DNA of 64,000 nt from an uncultured bacterium (lineage in GTDB: Bacteria; Omnitrophota; Omnitrophia; Omnitrophales; Aquincolibacteriaceae), in NCBI GenBank assembly GCA_964508905.1, contig CAZDVO010000001.1, positions 3,977-67,976 on the forward strand. The letters run 5' to 3'. Made by a program: the position numbers and the translations under genes. This document shows positions 18,348 through 45,868 of this stretch, piece by piece (position 1 is the stretch's first letter; each line of letters starts with the position of its first letter). The notes below the pieces were generated by a model. That model was not told the DNA's origin. It did no database searches and saw only the letters and a list, made by a program, of their open reading frames with translations.

Positions 18348-18469
18348 CCCCCGTTAGAGACAGAAAACGTTTTGAGAACGCCTCTGTTTAAAATTAATGG
18401 TTAAAGTTATTTCTTTATTCTCCCGCAATTGCGGGCCGAGACGTCTTCCTCCCCCGGTCTCTAACGGGG
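18348..18469. repeat. Intergenic element bounded by a 13-bp inverted repeat, CCCCCGTTAGAGAC ... GTCTCTAACGGGG (copy 1 of 3), between trmD and rplS
   Basis: A perfect 13-bp inverted repeat flanks about 95 bp of unrelated interior that contains a small internal palindrome, CCCGCAATTGCGGG. The right arm supplies the trmD stop codon (CCC CGT TAG). The left arm, read on the minus strand, supplies the GGGGGAA Shine-Dalgarno five or six nt before the rplS ATG. Confidence 0.6.
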
Positions 18470-19192
18470 TGATGATTGCAACAGATCCGGCCGCTTCTGG
18501 CGCGTGACCCGCTCGGCTTCATGATGACGCCAAAGGTCCACTTCTTTATGATCCCCGGAGAACAGCACCTCCGGGACTTTCCAACCCCGGTACTCCCGGG
18601 GCCTCGTATAATGAGGATGCTCAAGCATCCCCGTTTGAAAACTCTCGTGCTCGATCGACGCCGCGTTCCCGAGCACTCCCGGGACGAGCCGCGTCACCGC
18701 TTCGATCAGACACAACGCGGGAGCTTCCCCGCCCATCGTAATAAAATCACCGACCGAGATCTCCTGGTCGACCAGATGATCCTTCACGCGCTGGTCCACG
18801 CCTTCATAATGCCCCGCGATCAGGACCAGGTGCTTCTTTTTCGCGAGTTTCGCCGCGAGCTTCTGGCTCATCGGCTCCCCCTGGGGATCCATCAACACCA
18901 CCCAGGCTTTCTTTCCGACCTCTTCGACGCATTCAAAGAGAGGCTCGGGTTTCATCACCATCCCGGCCCCGCCTCCGAAGGGTTTATCGTCCGCGGTCTT
19001 ATGCCGGTCGTGCGTCCAATCCCGAAGATCATGCGTCCGGATCCGGACCCGCTTCTTCGCCTGGGCCTTTTCCAGAAGCGATTCCCCAAGCGGGCTTTTA
19101 AAGAACTCCGGAAAAAGCGTTACGATATCGATCGTAAGCCCCGTTAGAGATCCCCGCCTTTGTTGCTTCCCATTCTTTGAAACAGCTGGCAT
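18461..19192 (-). CDS. trmD: tRNA (guanine37-N1)-methyltransferase
   Basis: ...IDIVTLFPEFF...DDKPFGGGAGMVMKPEP...LIAGHYEGVDQRV...GDFITMGGEAPALCLIEAV... The N-terminus is uncertain. The ATG at 19192 lies inside inverted-repeat element 2 and would add a 20-aa extension. Homology points to a start near LTIDIV, but no canonical start codon is present there. Confidence 0.8.
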   Translation of the reverse strand: MPAVSKNGKQQRRGSLTGLTIDIVTLFPEFFKSPLGESLLEKAQAKKRVRIRTHDLRDWTHDRHKTADDKPFGGGAGMVMKPEPLFECVEEVGKKAWVVLMDPQGEPMSQKLAAKLAKKKHLVLIAGHYEGVDQRVKDHLVDQEISVGDFITMGGEAPALCLIEAVTRLVPGVLGNAASIEHESFQTGMLEHPHYTRPREYRGWKVPEVLFSGDHKEVDLWRHHEAERVTRQKRPDLLQSSPR

Positions 19193-19242
19193 GGCTCCTT
19201 CTCCCCACCAAACAACCTAAACCATGCTTATCTCTAACGGGG
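19139..19242. repeat. Intergenic element bounded by the inverted repeat CCCCGTTAGAGAT ... ATCTCTAACGGGG (copy 2 of 3), between rpsP and trmD
   Basis: A perfect 13-bp inverted repeat with about 77 bp of unrelated interior. The right arm is nested in a second small hairpin, CATGCTTA...TAAGCATG. The element occupies the position where rimM lies in the canonical rpsP-rimM-trmD-rplS operon. Confidence 0.6.
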
Positions 19243-24686: not shown

Positions 24687-25340
24687 TCAGGCCGCCTGCA
24701 ACGGAGTGCCGTCATCTGCGACAACGGCCCTCTTGATCCCTGCTTTCGCGAGAGCGAGGAACTTGTACCAAAAACGTTCGATCTCTCTCTGCGTTTGATA
24801 AATGGTCTTCGAATTGTCGATCGTGAAATCCGCCTTTTGCGCCTTCAGGGTCTCCGCCATCTGCGCCTGCTCGCGCGACCGGATCTCCTTGACCGAAAAA
24901 TGCTTGGACTGAAGACGCTTCAGCTTGATCGCGGAGTTACACGTCACGACCAGCACCTTGTCGCACAGCTTTTCAAATCCCGCCTCGAAAAGAAGCGGCA
25001 CTTCCACGATCACGACGCGGCTGGTGGATCCTTCGACCTTTTCCCGGATCCTCTCATAAACGTAAGGATGAATGACCTTCTCCAGCTCCTTACGCCGTTT
25101 GGCGTCCGAGAAGACCACCTCGGCGATCTTCTCGCGTTCCATCTTCTTGCCGCCGGGATGAAGCGCTTCCGGAAAAAGCTCGATGACCGCGTCAAAGACC
25201 GGGCTCCCCTTTTTCATCGAAGCGTGCGCGATATCATCAGCATCGATCACTTCCGCGCCCAGATTCTTGAACCGCTGGGCCACGGAACTTTTCCCGACCC
25301 CGAAGCCACCGGTCAGTCCCACCACTAATCTTTGTACCAT
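24687..25340 (-). CDS. coaE: Dephospho-CoA kinase
   Basis: VVGLTGGFGVGKSSVAQRFKNLGAEVIDADDIAH... Confidence 0.8.
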   Translation of the reverse strand: MVQRLVVGLTGGFGVGKSSVAQRFKNLGAEVIDADDIAHASMKKGSPVFDAVIELFPEALHPGGKKMEREKIAEVVFSDAKRRKELEKVIHPYVYERIREKVEGSTSRVVIVEVPLLFEAGFEKLCDKVLVVTCNSAIKLKRLQSKHFSVKEIRSREQAQMAETLKAQKADFTIDNSKTIYQTQREIERFWYKFLALAKAGIKRAVVADDGTPLQAA

Positions 25341-28150
25341 GTATCCCCCACGGTCACGTCGGCCTTAAGCGGCACGTTCAGGCGATAAGCGCCTTCCATT
25401 TCTTTTTTGACGAGCGCCTGAAGAGCCGGGATCTCGCCTTCCGGCGCGTCGAACACAAGCTCGTCGTGCACCTGCATGATCATCAGGCTCTCGCTCCGCT
25501 CTTCTTCAAGTCGCCGCTGGATCGCGATCATCGCGATCTTGATCAGGTCCGCCGCCGACCCCTGGATCGGGGCGTTGATCGCGGACCGTTCCGCGTACTG
25601 CCGCAGCTGCACGTTGGAAGCGTGGATATTCGGGAAATAAGAACGCCGTCCAAGGATCGTCGTCAAATACCCGTCCTGTTTCGCTTTTTCCTTCTGCGCG
25701 TCGAGGAACGTCTTCACGCCCGCGTACCGCGCGAAATAATTTTTAATGAACCGGTCCGCTTCCGGGATCGACATGTTCAGGTCCTGCGAAAGCCCGTAAC
25801 TCGTCTTGCCGTAGACGATACTGAAATTGATCGTCTTCGCGGCGTTCCGCATCTCGCGGGTCACTTCCTTTTCGCTCACGTCATAAAGCAAGGTCGCCGT
25901 AAACGTATGAATGTCCCGGTCTTCCGCGAACGCCTTCGTCAGGTTCGGGTCGCCCGAAAAATGCGCCAGGATCCTGAGCTCGATCTGCGAATAATCCGCC
26001 GAAAGGATCTTGCCCCAACCTCCATTTTCTTTTCCTAAAAGATTGCTGGGGCTAGCCCCTGCCTGTCCGGCAGGCAGGCCATTAACCTTTGATTCTTCTG
26101 ATGAAGAATGGGACTTCCCCCGTCCCCCGACCCTCGGCCGGGCCACAAAGGCCTTCCGCACCAGACGCCCCATCTCGGTCTTCACCGGGATATTTTGCAA
26201 ATTCGGGTCCGAACTCGAAAGCCGCCCCGTATCCGTGGTCGTCTGATTGAACGACGTATGCACGCAATGCGTTTCCGGGTTCACCATCTCCGGCAACGCG
26301 TCGAGATAGGTCGAACGCAACTTCGCGCGTTCCCGGTATTCCAGGATCTTCCGCGGCAATTCATGCGAGACGGCGAGCTTTTCCAGCACGCTCGCGTCGG
26401 TCGAATATCCGGTCTTGATCTTTTTCAGGGCCGGCAATTTTTTCTGGACGAACAACACATCCGCCAATTGTTTCGGCGAATCGAGATTGAACTCCGTCCC
26501 GGCGTCCGCGTGGATCTCCTTCACCAACGCGTCGATCTCCTTCCCCGCCTTCTCCGACAATTCTTTGAGGAACGGCAGGTCGAGCGCCACGCCATTTTGC
26601 TCGATCGTCGCGATCACACTCGAGAGCGGCAGTTCCACTTCTTCATAAAGTTTCGTCAGCCCGAGCTCTTTAAGCTTCGCGCGAAGCAACGGGACGAGAC
26701 GCATCACACAATCCGCGTCCTCGCAGGCATACGCCGTGATCGTCTCAAGCGGCACCTTGTCCATCGTGATGCTTTTCTTGCCGCTGCCGATCAGGCTTTC
26801 CGTCGTGATCTTCTGGACATTCAGGTATTCGAGCGAAAGATCATCCAGATTGTGATTCCGCTTCACCGGATCGGCCAGATAGCTCGCGAGCATCGTATCG
26901 AACGCGATCCCCGCCAACCGCACGCCGTGGCGCGCCATTACGATCGCGTCGTACTTGATATTCTGTCCGTATTTCGCGGTCCCGGCATCTTCCAGGACCG
27001 GCCGGACCGCCTTCAAGACCTCGTCGCAAGGCAACCCCGGCCCTTGATGCGCCGGGAGCGAGACCGGCACGTAATAAGCCGTCCAAGGTTCCCAACAAAA
27101 ACTCATCCCCACAAGCGCGGCCCGCATCGGATCGACCGAGGTCGTTTCCGTATCAAAACTGAACGCCTTCGCCTTACGCAATTCCGCGACCAGGGCTTTT
27201 AACTCACCATCATTCTGAACGGCCTTGTACTGCCGCTCCCGCGATTCCTTCTCCCGGACCGTCGTCACCGTGGCGCTTTTCATCAACCCGCGGAATTCAT
27301 ACCGCTTGAAGAATTCCAAAAGCGCTTCCCCGTCCGGCTCCGCCACCCGGATCTTCTCCCAATCGGCCTCAACGGGAACGTCCGTATCGATCGTCGCGAG
27401 CTTTTGGGACAGCTTCAGATCTTCCAGGTTCTCCCGGAGCTTTTGCCGCTGTTTCTCCGACGGCACTTCGTCCAGTCGCGCGATCAGGCTCTCGACCGAA
27501 CCGAACTCCAGCATCAGCTTGATCGCCGTTTTTTCGCCGATCCCCGGCACGCCCGGGATATTGTCCGAAGCGTCGCCCATCAGCGCGAGAATGTCCACGA
27601 CCTTCTCGGGCCCCAGCCCGCCAAAGCGTTCCTTTACCCCGTCGCTGTCATAGACCCGGTTCTCTTTGTGCGGCTGAAGGATCTTGATCTTTTCGTTCAC
27701 GAGCTGAAAAGCGTCCTTGTCCCCCGTGATAATGAAGACCCGGTGGCCTTCTTTTTCTCCGCGCCGGGCCAGCGTGCCGATCACATCGTCGGCTTCGTAC
27801 CCCGCTTTTTCAAAGATCGCGATATTCGAGATCCTGCAAAATTCCTTGATCGGCTCGATCTGGCTCACTAGCTCGTCCGGCATCGGTTTGCGATGCGCCT
27901 TGTAATCCTTGTACTGCTCGTGCCGGAACGTCGGTTCCTTGCGGTCAAAACACACCGCCAGATATTCCGGCTTCTGCTCTTCCAGGATCTTCCGCAGCAT
28001 CACCACGAACCCGTAGATCGCGTTCGTCGGCTCTCCCCGGGAATTGGTCAGATTCGGGATCGCGTAAAAAGCGCGGTAACAGAGCGAATGCCCGTCGATA
28101 AGGAACAGTTTTTCCCCTGGTGGGTTTTCACTCGGGGTCTTTTTTGTCAT
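25325..28150 (-). CDS. polA: DNA polymerase I, carrying an in-frame low-complexity insert next to motif A
   Basis: 5'-3' exonuclease, 3'-5' exonuclease and polymerase domains (...DYSQIELRILAHF...; ...QVHDELVFD...). An insert of about 40 aa (RVGGRGKSHSSSEESKVNGLPAGQAGASPSNLLGKENGGWG) sits immediately before DYSQIELR. Confidence 0.9.
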   Translation of the reverse strand: MTKKTPSENPPGEKLFLIDGHSLCYRAFYAIPNLTNSRGEPTNAIYGFVVMLRKILEEQKPEYLAVCFDRKEPTFRHEQYKDYKAHRKPMPDELVSQIEPIKEFCRISNIAIFEKAGYEADDVIGTLARRGEKEGHRVFIITGDKDAFQLVNEKIKILQPHKENRVYDSDGVKERFGGLGPEKVVDILALMGDASDNIPGVPGIGEKTAIKLMLEFGSVESLIARLDEVPSEKQRQKLRENLEDLKLSQKLATIDTDVPVEADWEKIRVAEPDGEALLEFFKRYEFRGLMKSATVTTVREKESRERQYKAVQNDGELKALVAELRKAKAFSFDTETTSVDPMRAALVGMSFCWEPWTAYYVPVSLPAHQGPGLPCDEVLKAVRPVLEDAGTAKYGQNIKYDAIVMARHGVRLAGIAFDTMLASYLADPVKRNHNLDDLSLEYLNVQKITTESLIGSGKKSITMDKVPLETITAYACEDADCVMRLVPLLRAKLKELGLTKLYEEVELPLSSVIATIEQNGVALDLPFLKELSEKAGKEIDALVKEIHADAGTEFNLDSPKQLADVLFVQKKLPALKKIKTGYSTDASVLEKLAVSHELPRKILEYRERAKLRSTYLDALPEMVNPETHCVHTSFNQTTTDTGRLSSSDPNLQNIPVKTEMGRLVRKAFVARPRVGGRGKSHSSSEESKVNGLPAGQAGASPSNLLGKENGGWGKILSADYSQIELRILAHFSGDPNLTKAFAEDRDIHTFTATLLYDVSEKEVTREMRNAAKTINFSIVYGKTSYGLSQDLNMSIPEADRFIKNYFARYAGVKTFLDAQKEKAKQDGYLTTILGRRSYFPNIHASNVQLRQYAERSAINAPIQGSAADLIKIAMIAIQRRLEEERSESLMIMQVHDELVFDAPEGEIPALQALVKKEMEGAYRLNVPLKADVTVGDTWYKD
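26022..26137. repeat. In-frame insert inside polA built from chained palindromes
   Basis: GGGGCTAGCCCC, then CCTGCCTGTCCGGCAGGCAGG, then GATTCTTCTGATGAAGAATG, are three adjacent perfect or near-perfect palindromes. Together they encode the non-conserved insert in the PolA palm domain. A related palindrome, CCTGCCGACAGGCAGG, occurs intergenically at 28439-28454. Confidence 0.5.
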
Positions 28151-33785: not shown

Positions 33786-35234
33786 TCATTCCGTCACCTC
33801 TTGGATCGATTCGTAAGTGATCTCAAGCAACTGTTCCAACTGCCGTTCCGTCATCCCAAGCGGCGGCATCAACACGATCACCGGCCCGAGCGGCCGCAGG
33901 ATCGCGCCTTTTTTCCGCGCGCGTTCGATCACCTGAACGCCGATCTTCTCCTCGGGAGCGAACTCCGCTTTCGTTTTTTTGTCACGGACGAGTTCAATGC
34001 CTGTCATGAGCCCAACCCGGCGGATATCCCCCACGCAGGAAAGCGCGTGAAAGGATTCAAGCCTTTTGCCTAAAAGCGCGATCCGGGGCTGGAGCTTCTC
34101 GATCGTCCGGTCTTTCTTAAAAAGATCCAGCGTCGCCAACGCCGCCGCGCATGCCAACGGATTCGCCGTGTAAGTGTGCCCGTGGAAGAAGGTCTTGAAC
34201 TCTTCGTATCGGCCGAGAAAAGCCTCATACACCGCTTCGCTCGTAAGCGTCGCGGCCAGCGGCAGATAACCGCCCGTCAGGCCTTTGGCGACCGCCATAA
34301 TGTCCGGCACGACACCTTCGTGTTCCGCGGCGAACATCTTGCCCGTCCGCCCGAATCCCGTCGCGACCTCATCAAAAATGAGGAGCGTATTATACTTTCG
34401 CGTCAATTCCCTCGCACGGGAAATATAACCTTCCGGCTGGTCGATCATCCCCGCGGCCCCCTGCATCAGGGGTTCCATCACGAACGCGGCCAGCTCGTCC
34501 TGATTCTCGCGCAACACCTTCTCCATCGCGTCCAAGGATTCTCTCTTCACTTGTTCCGGATCGTCACCAGTCTCCCACCGGTAACGGTACGGCGACGGAA
34601 CGGCGAGCGTTTCAAAAAGAAGTGGCTTGTAGATCTGATGGAAAAGATCGATCCCGCCCATACTGACCGAGCCGATCGTGTCGCCGTGATAGGCGTTCGT
34701 GAGGCGGGCGAATTTCTTTTTCCGCGGTTGGCCTTTCTGCTGCCAATACTGGTACGCGATCTTCACCGCGATCTCCATCGCCTCGGACCCGGAATCGGAA
34801 TAAAAAACGCGGGTGAGACAATGCTTTTTGTCATCCTGAGGGTTTTTCCCGTCATGCTGAGCGAAGCGAAGCATCTCGCTCGGAGATTCTTCGGGCTTTG
34901 CCCTCAGAATGACGTCGCTGTTACCCGGCGCGATCGCGATCAATTGCTCGGAGAGCTCGATCGCTGTCGGGTGAGAAAGGCCGAGGAATGTCGTATGCGC
35001 GATCTTGCCGAGCTGTTTTTTAACGGCCTTATCGATCGCGGGAACCCGATGCCCGAACACATTGCACCAGAGGGACGACACCCCGTCCAGGTACCGCCGC
35101 CCGTCCGTATCGATCAGGTAACAGCCTTCCCCTTTTTCAATGACGGGAAAATCCTCTGCCTGCCAGTCCCGCATCTGCGTAAACGGATGCCAGATGTATT
35201 TTCTATCTTTCGCGACAAGTTCGTTGGTATTCAT
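33786..35234 (-). CDS. bioA: Adenosylmethionine-8-amino-7-oxononanoate aminotransferase, carrying an in-frame insert
   Basis: A class-III aminotransferase (...FYSDSGSEAMEIAVKIAYQYW...IFDEVATGFGRTGKMFA...). An insert of about 30 aa (SDVILRAKPEESPSEMLRFAQHDGKNPQDDKKHC) precedes the conserved RVFYSDSGS block. Confidence 0.85.
   Translation of the reverse strand: MNTNELVAKDRKYIWHPFTQMRDWQAEDFPVIEKGEGCYLIDTDGRRYLDGVSSLWCNVFGHRVPAIDKAVKKQLGKIAHTTFLGLSHPTAIELSEQLIAIAPGNSDVILRAKPEESPSEMLRFAQHDGKNPQDDKKHCLTRVFYSDSGSEAMEIAVKIAYQYWQQKGQPRKKKFARLTNAYHGDTIGSVSMGGIDLFHQIYKPLLFETLAVPSPYRYRWETGDDPEQVKRESLDAMEKVLRENQDELAAFVMEPLMQGAAGMIDQPEGYISRARELTRKYNTLLIFDEVATGFGRTGKMFAAEHEGVVPDIMAVAKGLTGGYLPLAATLTSEAVYEAFLGRYEEFKTFFHGHTYTANPLACAAALATLDLFKKDRTIEKLQPRIALLGKRLESFHALSCVGDIRRVGLMTGIELVRDKKTKAEFAPEEKIGVQVIERARKKGAILRPLGPVIVLMPPLGMTERQLEQLLEITYESIQEVTE
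34818..34920. repeat. In-frame palindromic insert inside bioA
   Basis: GTCATCCTGAGGG ... CCCTCAGAATGAC (13 bp, one mismatch) encloses GAGCGAAGCGAAGCATCTCGCTC with inner GAGCGA/TCGCTC arms. The insert encodes residues absent from BioA homologues. Confidence 0.5.
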
Positions 35235-35921: not shown

Positions 35922-36051
35922 TCTATTTTTTTATACCGTATCGGGTATAAAATTCATTGCTGACAATAAATATATACCCTATAAGGTATATATTTAAATT
36001 TAATATACCCTTTAGGGTATATATTAATATTTATTTGATTAAACTATACCC
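35922..36051. promoter_or_regulatory. Array of four 18-bp palindromic operators (TATACC-N6-GGTATA) upstream of hipB
   Basis: tataccgtatcgggtata (35922-35939), tataccctataaggtata (35963-35980), tataccctttagggtata (35993-36010) and tataccctttatggtata (36034-36051), with spacings of 41, 30 and 41 bp. This parallels the four TATCC-N8-GGATA HipB operators in E. coli hipBA. Confidence 0.65.
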
Positions 36052-36073
36052 TTTATGGTATAGTTTTGTTGCT

Positions 36074-36301
36074 ATGGAACCTATAGGGAAACAAATCCAG
36101 GCATTGCGGAAGGAAGCGAATCTGACTCAAAAAGAATTCGCCAGGCGCGTGGGGGTGGGGTTGCGCTTTGTCCGCGATCTTGAGCAAGGTAAATCAAGCG
36201 TGCGCCTGGACAAAGTCGATCAAGTCCTCGAATTCCTTGGGCATCATTTGGAAATCGTTTCAGACCATGAGCCAAAAAATATTCCGGACAGCAAAAATTA
36301 A
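36074..36301 (+). CDS. hipB: HipB-like XRE-family HTH antitoxin
   Basis: MEPIGKQIQALRKEANLTQKEFARRVGVGLRFVRDLEQGKSSVRLDKVDQVLEFLG is an XRE/Cro HTH. Start at the ATG at 36074; the ORF-track start at 35957 would read through the operator array. Confidence 0.7.
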   Translation: MEPIGKQIQALRKEANLTQKEFARRVGVGLRFVRDLEQGKSSVRLDKVDQVLEFLGHHLEIVSDHEPKNIPDSKN

Positions 36302-36596
36302 TTATCAAGGACGGCTTGCCGGCCTTTTATCCGAAACAGAAAAAGGCTATCGCTTTGTCTACGATCCAAATTATGTACAGAATGGCGGGAAGCCTATTTC
36401 TGTTTCGCTGCCATTGCGGCCGGAACCTTATGAATCAGAAAAACTTTTCAGTTTCTTTGAAGGCCTTTTAGCGGAAGGGTGGTACCGGGACATTATGTGC
36501 GCGGTCGCTAAAGTTGACACCCGAGATTCCTTTGGCCTTTTACTTGCCGCGACAGGTGACACCATCGGAGCCGTCACGATCCAAAAGCCAGAATAA
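36267..36596 (+). CDS. hipS: HipS-like protein (stand-alone HipA N-terminal subdomain)
   Basis: MSQKIFRTAKINYQGRLAGLL...ISVSLPLRPE...FFEGLLAEGW...FGLLLAATGDTIGAV aligns with HipA N-subdomain 1 (LSLSLPL...FFDNLLPEG...FALLAHAGRECAGAL). Overlaps hipB by 35 bp. Confidence 0.7.
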   Translation: MSQKIFRTAKINYQGRLAGLLSETEKGYRFVYDPNYVQNGGKPISVSLPLRPEPYESEKLFSFFEGLLAEGWYRDIMCAVAKVDTRDSFGLLLAATGDTIGAVTIQKPE

Positions 36597-36598
36597 CT

Positions 36599-37459
36599 AT
36601 GGACCCAAAATTTTTGAAAGCGCTATTCGGAATAAGCGAGCTTCCTACCATATCTTTCTCTTCAGAGGATATTCCGCTCAAAGCCCAGGATATGGCTGAT
36701 GCGAAGCTGTCCATTTCGGGTGTTCAGCCCAAACTTTCTCTTAAAATGGATAAACAACGGAAAGAGCTTGTGCTCGCTCCGACGGGCGGAGAATATATTT
36801 TCAAACCGCAAACGCCGGCGTTCCCGCATATTCCGGAAAATGAAAACTGCTGCATGGATATTGCGCAAACCTTTAACATTGAGGTGCCGCCTCATTGCCT
36901 TCTCAAGCTTAAGGACGGAACTTTGGGCTATGTCGTGAAACGATTTGACCGCCAAGGCGAAGAGAAGGTCCATCAAGAGGATTTTTATCAAATTCTAGAA
37001 AAAACCGATAAATATCTCGGCTCATTGGAGCAGATCGGAAAAAAATTAAAAGAGATCTCGGCTGTTCCCGGCCTTGATATTCAACTGTTCTTCGAACGCG
37101 TCGTGTTAAACTTCCTTCTTGGAAATGGAGACGCTCATTTTAAGAACTTTTCCGTTTCTCATCGCGCGGAGGGGGTCCGTCTCTCGCCGGCCTACGATAT
37201 CGTTTCCTCAAAACTGGTTCTTCCAAAAGAAGAAGATTCGGCGCTGACTCTCAACGGCAAAAAGAACCGTATCACCCGTAACGATCTTGATGCGTTTGCC
37301 GAGAACTTAAAGATCCCGCAAAAGATCCGCTATGAAAAATTCGCGGGCAAAACAGACTTGATCGAGCAATTCATCCGGTCAAGCCAGCTACCGCAAGATT
37401 TCAAATCACGATTTGTCGAGATCGTCCTCTCCCGCTACGAACGCCTTAAGATCGCTTAA
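36599..37459 (+). CDS. hipT: HipT-like Ser/Thr kinase toxin (HipA kinase core lacking N-subdomain 1)
   Basis: SISGVQPKLS; catalytic motif GNGDAHFKNFS; ...SPAYDIVSS... The ATG lies 2 nt after the hipS stop, in a different frame. Confidence 0.75.
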   Translation: MDPKFLKALFGISELPTISFSSEDIPLKAQDMADAKLSISGVQPKLSLKMDKQRKELVLAPTGGEYIFKPQTPAFPHIPENENCCMDIAQTFNIEVPPHCLLKLKDGTLGYVVKRFDRQGEEKVHQEDFYQILEKTDKYLGSLEQIGKKLKEISAVPGLDIQLFFERVVLNFLLGNGDAHFKNFSVSHRAEGVRLSPAYDIVSSKLVLPKEEDSALTLNGKKNRITRNDLDAFAENLKIPQKIRYEKFAGKTDLIEQFIRSSQLPQDFKSRFVEIVLSRYERLKIA

Positions 37460-39204: not shown

Positions 39205-40410
39205 TCAAATTTTTCGAAGAAGCACGGCCGCGACTTGCCCGCCGAATCCCATCGAAAGTTTTACCGCGCTTGCCGCCTTCCGGGCCCGCGCTTTCCCGGG
39301 GACATAGTCAAGATCGCACGCGGGATCGCTTTTTTCAAGCCCCACGGTCGGAGGCAGGAATCCTTCGTGGATCCCCAACAGCGTCGCGATGATCTCCACC
39401 GCCCCCGTCGCTCCGAGCATATGCCCGGTCGCGCCCTTGGTCGAACTCATCGGAATGCGGTACGCCGCCGCGCCAAGGGCTTCCTTGATCTCCCGGGTCT
39501 CGTAGAGATCGCCATATTTTGTCCCGGTCCCGTGTAAATGCAAGTAATCGATATCGCTCGGGCCGATCCCGGCCCGCTTCAGCAGAAGTTTCAGCGTGTA
39601 CGAAAGCGCGTGTTCTTCCGGATCAAAAATGATCGGGTGCTTGCTGTCCTGCCCGTAGGCGGATTCGACGATCTCGCCGTAGATCCGCGCTCCCCGCGCC
39701 TTCGCGTTTTCCAGCGTCTCCAGAAAGACCACACCCGCGCCTTCACCGACCAGGAAACCGTCCCGGCGCGCGTCAAACGGGCGAAGGTCGCTTTTCGCGA
39801 GCGCTTTCATATTCTGGTATCCCGCGAGCATCAGGGAAGAAAGTGAAGCGTCGGTCGCTCCCGCCAGGCAATATTCGGCCTGCCCTTCGGAAACCATCCG
39901 GAAACCCTGGATGATCGCGACCGTCCCCGTCGTGCACGCGGACGCGTAACATTGAGCCGGCCCCCGGACATTCATCCGGCGGGCGATCCACTGGGCCGCG
40001 AGATTGGGTAGCGCGCTCGTGTAGAGCCGGGCGCCCAGGATCGCGCTCGGGGACTTCCGAAAACGTTCGGCAAGTTGGCTCAGGCTGTGAACGCCGCCTT
40101 TGCTCGAGCTGACGGAAAGCGCGACCGCGTAAGGATCGACTTTGCTCAGGTCCATCCCCGCGTCCGCGACGGCTTGTTCGGCGGCGGCCACGGCGTATTG
40201 AATGAAGGGATCGAGCTTCTGCGTCGCGTTTGGGCGCGGGTTAAAATCCCTCACGGGAAAAACGGGCGGAAACCGGTAGCCTTCAGGCGTCACGTATTCC
40301 CCGGACGCTTTGCCGCAAACCCCTTGTTTGAGATTCTCGCGGAACGCGTCCAGAGTATTTCCGATCGGCGAAAGCACTCCCATCCCTGTCACAACCACGC
40401 GTCTTTTCAC
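39205..40410 (-). CDS. fabF: 3-oxoacyl-ACP synthase II (FabF-like KAS), located inside the biotin operon
   Basis: VKRRVVVTGMGVLSPIGNT...CTTG...HGTGT...GHMLGATGAVE... is full-length KAS-II-like. The start is set at the GTG (VKRRVVV) that abuts the arm of inverted-repeat element 3. The in-frame ATG at 40482 lies inside that element and would add 24 aa. Confidence 0.8.
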   Translation of the reverse strand: MKRRVVVTGMGVLSPIGNTLDAFRENLKQGVCGKASGEYVTPEGYRFPPVFPVRDFNPRPNATQKLDPFIQYAVAAAEQAVADAGMDLSKVDPYAVALSVSSSKGGVHSLSQLAERFRKSPSAILGARLYTSALPNLAAQWIARRMNVRGPAQCYASACTTGTVAIIQGFRMVSEGQAEYCLAGATDASLSSLMLAGYQNMKALAKSDLRPFDARRDGFLVGEGAGVVFLETLENAKARGARIYGEIVESAYGQDSKHPIIFDPEEHALSYTLKLLLKRAGIGPSDIDYLHLHGTGTKYGDLYETREIKEALGAAAYRIPMSSTKGATGHMLGATGAVEIIATLLGIHEGFLPPTVGLEKSDPACDLDYVPGKARARKAASAVKLSMGFGGQVAAVLLRKI

Positions 40411-40530
40411 CCTGTTAGAGATGGGAAGCGCTTCTGAAGCGCTTCCGTTAAATCCTCTTTTTTCTTGTCCGGAATTTTTCATGTTTTCCGCCTAAAAAAT
40501 CTCGCCTCGTTTTACGAATCTCTAACGGGG
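40410..40530. repeat. Intergenic element bounded by the inverted repeat CCCTGTTAGAGAT ... ATCTCTAACGGGG (copy 3 of 3), between fabG and fabF
   Basis: The 13-bp inverted repeat has one mismatch. About 95 bp of unrelated interior includes the hairpin GGAAGCGCTTC-TGAA-GCGCTTCC. This spot is where acpP lies in canonical fab clusters. Confidence 0.55.
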
Positions 40531-43726: not shown

Positions 43727-45868
43727 TTAAAAGAATTTCTCCTGATCGAGCAGTTTTTCGATCTTTTTGCCGACGGGGTCTTTGTGAAAATAATCCTGGA
43801 TCACGCCTTTTTTCAAGTAATTGACGATCGGAACAAAGATCATCCCCTGGTCTAGCGCCAAATACTGGGTGTTTACGCGCTGGCTCGGGAACGTGATCGA
43901 ATCATAAAACCCGTACTCTCCGTAAATGGGAAAGGTCAGGAGTTTCCGGATGTTCTTGATGGCGTCCTTGGGAATGGCATCCAGAGCAAGAAAGGTGACG
44001 TGCGGCGTGATGACGCCGCGGTCCGGATACCCTTTGGCACCGAGTCTTTTAACGCCATATTCCTCGTACCTCCACCGCCGCCCGTCCGCCGTCGAAGCCG
44101 GAGAAATGCCCCAAACGGGGTATTTTTTATCCTTGAGAGCGAAATCCCGGTGTAGCTCGGCCACGATCTTGTCGTTCTCCCCGAGGCTTTTGGGGGCATA
44201 TTTCTTTTCATTGATCACGAGCGTCGGCATCAGGAACTCAAAAAGCGACCCGCCCCAGCTTGGCACGAATTTCTTGCCGCCCTCCTTATAATATCCCTGA
44301 AAATAGCTGACCCCCTCCCGTTCCACCATTTTCCCCTCAGGTTTCTGGGTCTGCCAATCCCACGCGTCAGGAGCCGTGCGATAGAGATACCACCAGTGAT
44401 CTTGGGAGAGATCCCCTTTGCCGATCCCGTAAAGGCTCGCGATACGCGCTTCGGTCACAAGCATCCCGTAGTGATAGGGTGTCGGGCGGTCTTCTTCCAC
44501 GTCGTAGCCCACCCGAAGCTGGTTGGTGTCGGGATCAAGGAATTCCTGAAAATGGAACCCATCGAGGATCGCGGTCGCGTCCTTCGCGATATCCCCCGGG
44601 AAAGCCTGCCGCGTCACCACCAACGCCACCGCCAGCCAAGCGCTGTCCACGCTTGAAACGAAACGGCGGGTTTCCGCCAAGCGGGTCGTTTCATAGAAGT
44701 TAAAGAAAAAACCTTTCCACGCCTTCAGCTTCTTAAGGACGGCGAGAATGTCCTTGGCCCGCGTTTCCGCCTGGGCGGCGTTGAGGATCCCAAGTTCCCG
44801 GGCCCCGACCGTCGCCAAAAGGTCCATAGCGATATTCGTGGGAGAAGTGTAGGCGGCCGCGAGGGGGAAATCGCCGATCTTGTAGTGGTCGACCACGAGA
44901 TGGCTTTTTTTGTCGGCGGCATTTTCAAAATACTTCCAGGTGTCGCGGGCGATCTTCATCAGAAGATCCTTGTCGTTCCCGGTCGCCAACAGTTCCTTGC
45001 GGCGGGGCTCATCGAACACCGCCTGAGGAAATCCTTTCATGTTGTCGACTACGCTCTCGAACCCGACCTCGGGAGGCCCGAAGAAAGCGACCTCATCCAG
45101 GCCGATCTTCCCCGCCATGTTTTTGTCTTTCGCGAGCACGATGAACGCCAGTGAGCGCAACTGGTCCAGATCCACTCCGCGGAAAACCGAGAGGGGCAGG
45201 ATCGCGTCATTCCATCCCGTGCTTTCCCGGCAGGCTTCCGTCATGTCCTGAGCCACGGTCTTACCCGCCCAGTCGCTCAGCGCCACGCGCAGCCGCCCTT
45301 TGAACGAAGTCTCGGCCGGGACTTGGCATTTCACCGCGAGATATTGCGCCGCGCTCATGTCCAGTTTCTCAAGAGAGGTCCGCGCTTCAGCTTGTCCCTT
45401 CGCCTTCAAGTTGTACCGAAGCCAGAGCGACGAACCGGACTTTACGCCGCGGGCGTCTTCCCTTTTGATCTCCAGGACCAGGGCCTTTGTTTTTTCCTGG
45501 TCCACCCCCCAAGCCCCTCCAAGCTGGTTCTTGAGCCCTTTGCCGCTGAAATCATCGATCACCTTGAAACGGGAGGATGTCCGCAGTGATTTGCTCCCGG
45601 GCACGAGATCATAAATGCGTCCGATGTCGAGCGGCGGCGCTTCTCCGGCAGGGCCGATCTGAGCTACGGGAATATTTTTTTCGGAAGCTTCCGTGGGGCC
45701 GATCTTGGAGCCTGAAGCTTCGGTGGTTTTACTGGAGAAAGATCTTGCTTTGGCTGCCGCGAATCCCTGAGCGGTGATGCCCACAAGAAATACGCTGGCA
45801 ACCAAAAATGAAAAAGCGTTCCTCAGGTTCTGTTTCAAACCTGAGGAACGCTTGGAAAGATCGGCCAT
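43727..45868 (-). CDS. Membrane-anchored or secreted glucoamylase-like protein (DUF3131/PF10091; GH144-type beta-1,2-glucanase candidate) with an extra N-terminal domain
   Basis: N-terminal hydrophobic segment. The C-terminal half (...YGEYGFYDSITF...YLALDQGMIFVPIVNYL...) matches the same family as the 1089-2367 protein. Confidence 0.55.
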   Translation of the reverse strand: MADLSKRSSGLKQNLRNAFSFLVASVFLVGITAQGFAAAKARSFSSKTTEASGSKIGPTEASEKNIPVAQIGPAGEAPPLDIGRIYDLVPGSKSLRTSSRFKVIDDFSGKGLKNQLGGAWGVDQEKTKALVLEIKREDARGVKSGSSLWLRYNLKAKGQAEARTSLEKLDMSAAQYLAVKCQVPAETSFKGRLRVALSDWAGKTVAQDMTEACRESTGWNDAILPLSVFRGVDLDQLRSLAFIVLAKDKNMAGKIGLDEVAFFGPPEVGFESVVDNMKGFPQAVFDEPRRKELLATGNDKDLLMKIARDTWKYFENAADKKSHLVVDHYKIGDFPLAAAYTSPTNIAMDLLATVGARELGILNAAQAETRAKDILAVLKKLKAWKGFFFNFYETTRLAETRRFVSSVDSAWLAVALVVTRQAFPGDIAKDATAILDGFHFQEFLDPDTNQLRVGYDVEEDRPTPYHYGMLVTEARIASLYGIGKGDLSQDHWWYLYRTAPDAWDWQTQKPEGKMVEREGVSYFQGYYKEGGKKFVPSWGGSLFEFLMPTLVINEKKYAPKSLGENDKIVAELHRDFALKDKKYPVWGISPASTADGRRWRYEEYGVKRLGAKGYPDRGVITPHVTFLALDAIPKDAIKNIRKLLTFPIYGEYGFYDSITFPSQRVNTQYLALDQGMIFVPIVNYLKKGVIQDYFHKDPVGKKIEKLLDQEKFF

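Follow-up and report, generated by a model that had tools for sequence, protein, structure and literature searches.

The question raised by this locus is where the 36 palindrome-encoded residues inside an otherwise ordinary BioA protein came from. The gene, bioA, lies in a 64,000-nucleotide (nt) stretch of DNA from an uncultured Omnitrophota bacterium (contig CAZDVO010000001.1); this whole stretch is hereafter called the window. In our view the insert represents, with a probability of roughly 75%, a short DNA hairpin repeat, non-autonomous and of the type associated with Ssn nucleases, that is present in bioA as an in-frame copy. This assignment draws on the build of the insert, on a repeat family to which its units belong, and on the clustering of repeats of the same type around one clade of ssn genes.

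The host gene and its extra codons are placed as follows.

33786..35234, minus strand: bioA, an open reading frame (ORF) of 482 aa encoding adenosylmethionine-8-amino-7-oxononanoate aminotransferase, the host gene of the insert.
34818..34925, minus strand: the insert GNSDVILRAKPEESPSEMLRFAQHDGKNPQDDKKHC, 36 codons in place of 2 (KG), in frame and stop-free, lengthening the protein by a net 34 aa and the gene by 102 nt.

BioA is a class-III aminotransferase (Pfam PF00202, E 8e-103), and bioD lies directly downstream of its gene. The original prediction, an earlier reading of this DNA, had held that the protein is colinear with class-III aminotransferases except for an insert before RVFYSDSGS, and two alignments bore this out. 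The closest solved relative, Bacillus subtilis BioA (3dod, E 5e-145), aligned in two blocks covering query residues 3-103 and 140-481, with residues 104-139 left without a counterpart. When the window BioA was aligned with its 120 closest database orthologues, a few of which are named as Candidatus Omnitrophota, about 100 of the 120 were found to read IAP-KG-LTRVFYSDSGS at the position where the window protein reads IAP-GNSDVILRAKPEESPSEMLRFAQHDGKNPQDDKKHC-LTRVFYSDSGS, 36 residues replacing KG. The insert was also specific to its lineage, as had been claimed: it was absent from the sister orthologue P0002, which is 82% identical to the window BioA by BLASTP, and the insert peptide was conserved in no other BioA compared. 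Among the GTDB representative genomes scanned, the best BioA match was 73% identical. Columns invariant in a 64-sequence BioA alignment, K317 included, are by definition kept in the window protein. The identical insert-bearing protein was encoded on a separately assembled 4.5-kb Logan contig (L001, run SRR11845625). Thus, the insert is not an artefact of a single assembly.

In an AlphaFold2 model of BioA, the mean predicted local distance difference test score (pLDDT) was 79.9, and residues 108-135 were modelled at a pLDDT below 50. This low-scoring stretch sits between helix 89-101 and strand 140-146, just before the SDSGS segment; in the protein, the palindromes are flanked by the helix ending ...LIAIAP and by the strand LTRVFYSDSGS that leads to the pyridoxal phosphate (PLP)-phosphate loop. 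The 34-residue loop gained by BioA is probably disordered, and the remainder of the enzyme is intact. The proposed origin of the insert implies no benefit to BioA.

The DNA of the insert had been described as a 13-nt outer inverted repeat with one mismatch enclosing inner arms GAGCGA and TCGCTC, and both were located where claimed. The outer repeat, GTCATCCTGAGGG / CCCTCAGAATGAC, occupies 34830-34842 and 34901-34913 (92% complementary, arms 58 nt apart), and the inner arms lie at 34859-34864 (GAGCGA) and 34876-34881 (TCGCTC). The motif GTCATNCTGAG occurred exactly three times in the 64 kb, all of them within the bioA insert. The 111-nt insert region folded with an energy of -21.2 kcal/mol as DNA and -39.2 kcal/mol as RNA, with z about -3.5 for each relative to shuffles. 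Because GTCATNCTGAG is confined to the insert and the fold departs this far from shuffles, the palindromy of the insert is beyond chance. That the insert is palindromic therefore stands; the "nested palindrome" of the original prediction, however, is better parsed from its sequence as three copies of one hairpin unit, two of them complete and the third truncated, as listed here.

34830..34913, no strand assigned: the composite hairpin element, 84 nt, made up of unit C (truncated), unit B, a 5-nt spacer and inverted unit A.
34830..34850, plus strand: unit C, truncated, GTC ATCCT GA GGG TTTTT CCC, without its 3' half; the covariance model R1 (described below) does not score it as a full unit.
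34851..34877, plus strand: unit B, complete, GTC ATGCT GA GC GAA GC GA AGCAT C TC; read in reverse as EMLRFAQHD; R1 44.7 bits, E 1.6e-9.
34878..34882, no strand assigned: the spacer, 5 nt, GCTCG on the plus strand (CGAGC on the coding strand), separating units A and B, whose 3' ends face each other.
34883..34913, minus strand: unit A, complete, GTC ATTCT GA GGGC AAA GCCC GA AGAAT C TC; read as VILRAKPEES; R1 35.4 bits, E 4e-7.

A unit spans 27-31 nt and consists of GTC, a 5-bp stem ATNCT/AGN'AT, tandem GA/GA and a variable mini-hairpin (GCGAAGC or GGGCAAAGCCC in the bioA units), followed by C-TC. Units A and B form an inverted doublet, 5 nt apart with one unit per strand, and jointly make a long hairpin to which truncated unit C is attached. 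On the coding strand, unit B is read inverted as GAGATGCTTCGCTTCGCTCAGCATGAC, and unit C, also inverted and lacking its inner half, as GGGAAAAACCCTCAGGATGAC. The first 13 nt of unit C pair with the start of unit A, and it is this pairing that constitutes the outer 13-nt inverted repeat.

Viral contigs were scanned for the unit family with the pattern GTCATNCTGAGN{5,11}GAAGNATC, which gave at least 120 matching stretches, with 153 units among the matches listed. The consensus of these 153 listed phage-contig units was T-GTCATTCTGAGCGAAGCGAAGAATC-TC, and their mini-hairpins were variable, with GGGCCGCAGCCC-like forms among them, as in unit A. At the two free stem positions, 145 of the 153 listed units had complementary bases (TA 72, CG 46, GC 20, AT 7). 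In a covariation test on 88 distinct units, the free stem pair was UA in 42, CG in 27, GC in 11 and AU in 3; its covariation score lay above that of every shuffle, and 96.6% of cells were paired, compared with 20-49% in slid controls. The covariance model R1 was trained on the phage-contig units alone and the window was searched with filters off. Only units A and B were significant in the 64 kb, the next match scoring 11.4 bits. An Rfam scan of the whole window at the gathering threshold gave zero matches.

The unit type was seen in Omnitrophota, Bacteroidota plasmids, cyanobacteria and phage contigs. A plasmid of Hymenobacter volaticus carries an inverted doublet in which the unit is one indel from unit B, and a second Omnitrophota orthologue (L002) carries a tight doublet of the bioA-type unit inside bioA, in the corresponding loop, with the spacer AAAGA. 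Intergenic inverted doublets were found about 800 bp downstream of bioA in an Omnitrophica genome (L139) and in two other genomes (L153 and L205). Doublets were common in other genomes, the unit also occurring singly or with spacers of 2-42 nt, and the matching copies outside bioA were mostly intergenic. The bioA units belong to a cross-phylum repeat family with base-pair covariation. Related palindromes had been expected elsewhere, and the insert is indeed built of a repeated element with many related copies.

The nearest described repeats are those recognised by Ssn nucleases. In Neisseria, the NTS repeat is CGTCATTCCCGCGMAVGCGGGAATCYRG and includes dRS3, and a degenerate "Ssn-related motif" (SRM) has also been defined; ssnA genes from different phyla have NTS/SRM repeats at their flanks (Chenal et al. 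2025, PMC11893778). SsnA, a 94-aa GIY-YIG protein, binds the hairpin solely as single-stranded DNA and cuts a few nt upstream; the GTC ahead of the palindrome matters for cutting, and the C right after the palindrome is most critical for SsnA binding (PMC11893778). Units A and B both have CGTC-AT..., with GTC directly upstream of the palindrome, and a C directly after it (AGAAT-C in unit A, AGCAT-C in unit B). Since the C after the palindrome was fixed by the search pattern, its conservation across the family is no independent evidence. In the bioA units as in NTS/dRS3/SRM repeats, (C/T)GTCAT leads into an imperfect palindrome some 20 nt long, which is followed by C and then by a brief conserved tail, and the bioA unit type has in common with those repeats the arrangement in oriented, often inverted doublets and in clusters that flank ssn genes on both sides. 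In contrast, the bioA stem is CTGAG...GAAG, not CCCGCG...GCGGG, and contains tandem GA mismatches and a mini-hairpin; because of this different stem, the published SRM pattern misses the bioA units. The bioA units also differ in lying in frame within a housekeeping gene, in their low copy density, and in that no ssn gene was seen in the window.

Repeats of the bioA type were found around a single clade of Ssn homologues. The homologue on a Planktothrix agardhii plasmid has GTCATTCTGAGTGAAACGAAGAATCTC doublets, of the bioA unit type, on both sides, and homologues of the Planktothrix clade from Lyngbya aestuarii and from an ENA contig are also flanked by bioA-type repeats, the ENA contig carrying about 20 copies. 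Of the 44 R1 matches in 1.3 Mb of fetched loci, 36 were concentrated in the roughly 12 kb that these three ssn loci make up together. Other Ssn clades had other stems: GTCATCCCGAGGAACGAGGGATC in Spirosoma, and GTCATCCCGG...CCGGGACCC beside homologues on phage contigs, which are 52-57% identical to the Planktothrix protein and have flanks that are not of the bioA type. These clade-specific stems agree with nuclease-specific recognition as set out in PMC11893778, where every nuclease is viewed as having its own specificity. Since the layout is kept and bioA-type repeats cluster around one ssn clade, the bioA units can be classed, as far as sequence goes, as a variant of the Ssn-associated NTS/dRS3 SRM repeats.

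A further Ssn locus was recovered from Azospirillum lipoferum 4B, on plasmid NC_016623.1 (L212:2850-3400), where a match from a search with a GIY-YIG seed proved to be a true Ssn locus. The GIY-YIG gene, which shares 59% identity with the N. gonorrhoeae hit, lies between sufB and sufC with an inverted doublet of the SRM hairpin CGTCATCCCCGCGAAGGCGGGGATCCAG on each side, and it served as an Ssn seed. It looks like a repeat-gene-repeat module that was inserted whole into an operon. The YazA/YhbQ-type family was also drawn in by the first GIY-YIG seed; its Legionella example has no flanking hairpins, and the family was not used as Ssn.

The loop of BioA that carries the insert was found to be a recurrent insertion point. 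Inserts were present at this loop in about 15 of the 120 orthologues, and the insert DNA in the other orthologues consisted of hairpin repeats of several kinds. In L007, an NTS-consensus unit TGTCATTCCCGCGAAGGCGGGAATCCAG stands beside a GTCATCCCCGA... unit, and L006 and L008 contain units related to those of L007; the published SRM pattern does match the inserts of these three orthologues. The loop of L009 contains GGTGACAGTCACC-type palindromes, and that of L005 contains GTAGGGCAGG...CCTGCCCTAC. Insert-bearing proteins were scattered in a neighbour-joining tree, in which the window BioA was sister to the insert-free 82%-identical protein. The left junction GGNAAY ("GN") was common to six inserts, and the right junctions were alike (...GAYGAC-AAR-CAR-MRN); intergenic doublets elsewhere were without GGNAAY. 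The shared junctions may stem from one old insertion, the interior of which was later replaced, together with recombination or loss, or else from several insertions whose junction the mechanism itself dictates. The BioA inserts resemble the Neisserial intergenic mosaic elements (dRS3-bounded arrays), which are hairpin-unit mosaics with common ends, in that they mix unit types and have similar junctions; those elements are intergenic, whereas the BioA mosaic lies within a protein loop.

Two further observations were made at bioA loci. In L008, where bioA carries NTS-like units, the intergenic stretch that follows bioD contains another hairpin with a GTCAT head, CGTCATTGCGAACCCCGTTTTTGGGGGTGTGGCAATC (L008:12422-12456). 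At the Nitrospirota bioA loci L154, L165, L177 and L186, the loop before RVFYSD was expanded in some, with inserts derived from other palindromes, GGGGGCAGGCTTGCTGCCTGACCC in L165 and GGGGCAAGGCATGCCATGCCCC in L186.

With the insert read as an Ssn-type repeat, its arrival may be pictured as follows. Units would arrive through repair or copying at a single strand cut by Ssn, or through recombination of one copy with another, and not by classical transposition. Existing copies would attract further ones, producing mosaic arrays that turn over, and selection would remove insertions except in permissive loops and open frames. With 102 nt being a multiple of three and the used frame being stop-free, the enzyme would simply gain a loop; by our reading of the unit consensus, four of its six reading frames are stop-free. 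If a cognate Ssn is present, it would be able to cleave bioA DNA in single-stranded form whichever strand is exposed, because each bioA strand carries one complete recognition unit.

Several results weigh against this origin. R1 found no further bioA-type unit in the 64-kb window, and tblastn with four Ssn seeds found no ssn homologue there; because of these two results, activity of the element in this genome is putative. A combined regex and tblastn search covered the window, 80 BioA loci and 120 phage-contig loci and found no ssn genes. When ORFs within 1.5 kb of the units at the 120 phage-contig loci were clustered, the units adjoined no recurrent nuclease or transposase, and phage structural genes alone recurred. 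The published SRM pattern HGTCWYN(0-2)YYVSBRHN(0-5)WNVSBRGN(0-2)RNCYNB had 0 matches in the window, and comparison of filled with empty site DNA revealed no target-site duplication at the junctions. Finally, Ssn is known only to cut single-stranded DNA, and mobility of NTS/SRM repeats has not been demonstrated (PMC11893778).

A more ambitious version of the same idea is that active copying of Ssn-associated units takes place at the level of single strands, with new copies landing preferentially beside existing units, a loop that has been hit becoming a lasting landing pad with unit turnover. This version would explain the shared "AP-GN" and "...GAC-AAR-CAR" junctions despite the different units and the scattered tree positions, and we regard it as possible but doubtful. 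If true, it would provide the first evidence for mobile NTS/SRM repeats, and the repeats would be a general cross-phylum generator of protein-loop variation.

Among other known systems, the architecture of the element matches that of REPINs, doublets of repetitive extragenic palindromes (REPs) mobilised by RAYT, an IS200/IS605-like Y1 transposase: two short imperfect palindromes are inverted into a larger hairpin, and such doublets are common elsewhere. REPINs also share with it the short spacer, the non-autonomous character and, presumably, the formation of single-stranded DNA hairpins. A GTAG head is characteristic of REPs. The bioA unit has instead the head GTCAT, the gene beside the dense arrays is a GIY-YIG Ssn homologue in place of a Y1 transposase, no recurrent transposase-like ORF was found near units in the 120 phage-contig loci, and the site in bioA is intragenic rather than extragenic; a REPIN origin is thus unlikely. 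We find it no easier to credit a classical miniature inverted-repeat transposable element (MITE), or a transposon remnant resembling a Rickettsia palindromic element (RPE), mobilised through its 13-nt terminal inverted repeats by a DDE transposase. RPEs were defined in Rickettsia and measure about 100-150 bp. They are described as lying in frame in conserved metabolic and informational genes, where they add a peptide without destroying the protein (review, PMC10969869), and the BioA insert is likewise in frame in a conserved protein at a structurally tolerant site. Rickettsia is also named among the plant and animal symbionts enriched in species with more than 300 SRM elements (PMC11893778). 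The bioA element differs, however, in being a composite of 27-31 nt units in Omnitrophota, and it is likened to RPEs by description, not by sequence. A 13-nt terminal inverted repeat does exist, but these "terminal repeats" are just the 13-nt heads of two unit copies, and the unit occurs elsewhere singly or with variable spacers; moreover, the junctions lack a target-site duplication, and no related autonomous insertion sequence was found among the ORFs near phage-contig units.

The remaining explanations place the origin of the insert in the protein, in the locus or in the assembly. An adaptive loop extension of BioA, for example as a new interaction surface, with the palindromic DNA incidental, would fit the intact frame and the fact that the loop is enlarged in some Nitrospirota as well as in about 15 of the 120 orthologues. 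The insert peptides, however, are unrelated between lineages and track hairpin-unit types instead of the protein tree, the insert is modelled at a pLDDT below 50, and its DNA fits a repeat consensus that is mostly intergenic elsewhere, making such an extension quite improbable. Local origin by template switching or replication slippage, unrelated to other repeats, would account for the presence of the motif at a single locus in the 64-kb window. Against it stand the match of both units to the phage-trained R1 at 35-45 bits and the single indel that separates one unit from the Hymenobacter plasmid unit, and we give it very little credence. Equally little weight is given to an assembly or binning artefact, a chimeric join inside bioA: the window does come from a metagenome-assembled genome, and repeats are able to mislead assemblers, but the independent Logan contig encodes the identical protein, the insert is in frame with colinear bioA on both flanks, and comparable inserts are present in orthologues from other samples.

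A second in-frame insert of the window lies in polA (25325..28150). It comprises 35 aa, GKSHSSSEESKVNGLPAGQAGASPSNLLGKENGGW, at 26015..26119 on the minus strand, just ahead of the ILSADYSQIELR motif, and it is absent from an 80%-identical orthologue (L008:17399-20140). The DNA of this insert contains three unrelated palindromes, ATTCTTCATCAGAAGAAT, CCTGCCTGCCGGACAGGCAGG and GGGGCTAGCCCC, and as a candidate bioA-type unit it gave no match to R1. The suspicion that more than one element type is present was thereby upheld. The proposal that palindromic elements of this genome are tolerated inside genes has the in-frame inserts of bioA and polA in its favour and extends to these two genes only. 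As a whole, the original prediction was supported, although it had recognised neither the unit structure nor the Ssn/NTS-type link.

Other palindromes were noted in the window. Adjoining bioA, at 35929-37459, are an HTH_3 regulator and ORFs for HipA N-terminal and C-terminal domains (a split or two-part HipA-like toxin module), with several TATACCC...GGGTATA palindromes in and ahead of the start of the regulator. The 12-mer CCCCGTTAGAGA occurred 7 times in the window (at most 1 mismatch), compared with 0.31 expected. Its copies include three inverted pairs about 100-120 nt apart, at 18349-18469, 19139-19242 and 40410-40530, whose interiors are unlike; trmD lies between two of the pairs, the third being situated upstream of an SDR/FabG-like gene. 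They might be paired operators, or else the termini of a further small element. At 45814-45853, where two long minus-strand ORFs meet, there is a perfect 16-bp stem with an 8-nt loop (AAGCGTTCCTCAGGTT...AACCTGAGGAACGCTT).

Placement of the repeat within coding frames was also seen outside bioA. In the phage contigs, 54 of 140 units were flanked by 50 or more codons on either side within a stop-free frame spanning 120 aa or more, compared with 66% of random positions, which suggests that in-frame copies there are depleted yet not rare. Long viral-contig frames carrying bioA-type units were noted at L066:1232-1267, L092:4933-4966, L080:2958-3207 and L058:1175-1209; some have Pfam domains, with examples in a primase-helicase linker and in a Mu-transposase-like ORF, and the encoded peptides include VILSDSEES and ILRSAQDD.

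The BioA case is a real, though not unprecedented, instance of repeat DNA inside a gene, in-frame palindromic elements being known from Rickettsia. With the insert taken as an Ssn-type repeat, repeats of the Ssn/NTS kind, known until now from intergenic positions around genes, would also occur in frame in essential enzyme genes of an uncultured phylum. The CTGAG...GAAG stem is a common sequence type that lies beyond the published search pattern and yet flanks ssn genes. The finding would also explain odd peptides such as VILSEAKNL, ILRSAQDD, MLRFAQHD and the like, which metagenome annotations contain both as inserts and in the form of spurious small ORFs. The BioA loop itself offers a natural series in which the gain, loss and replacement of hairpin repeats may be followed.

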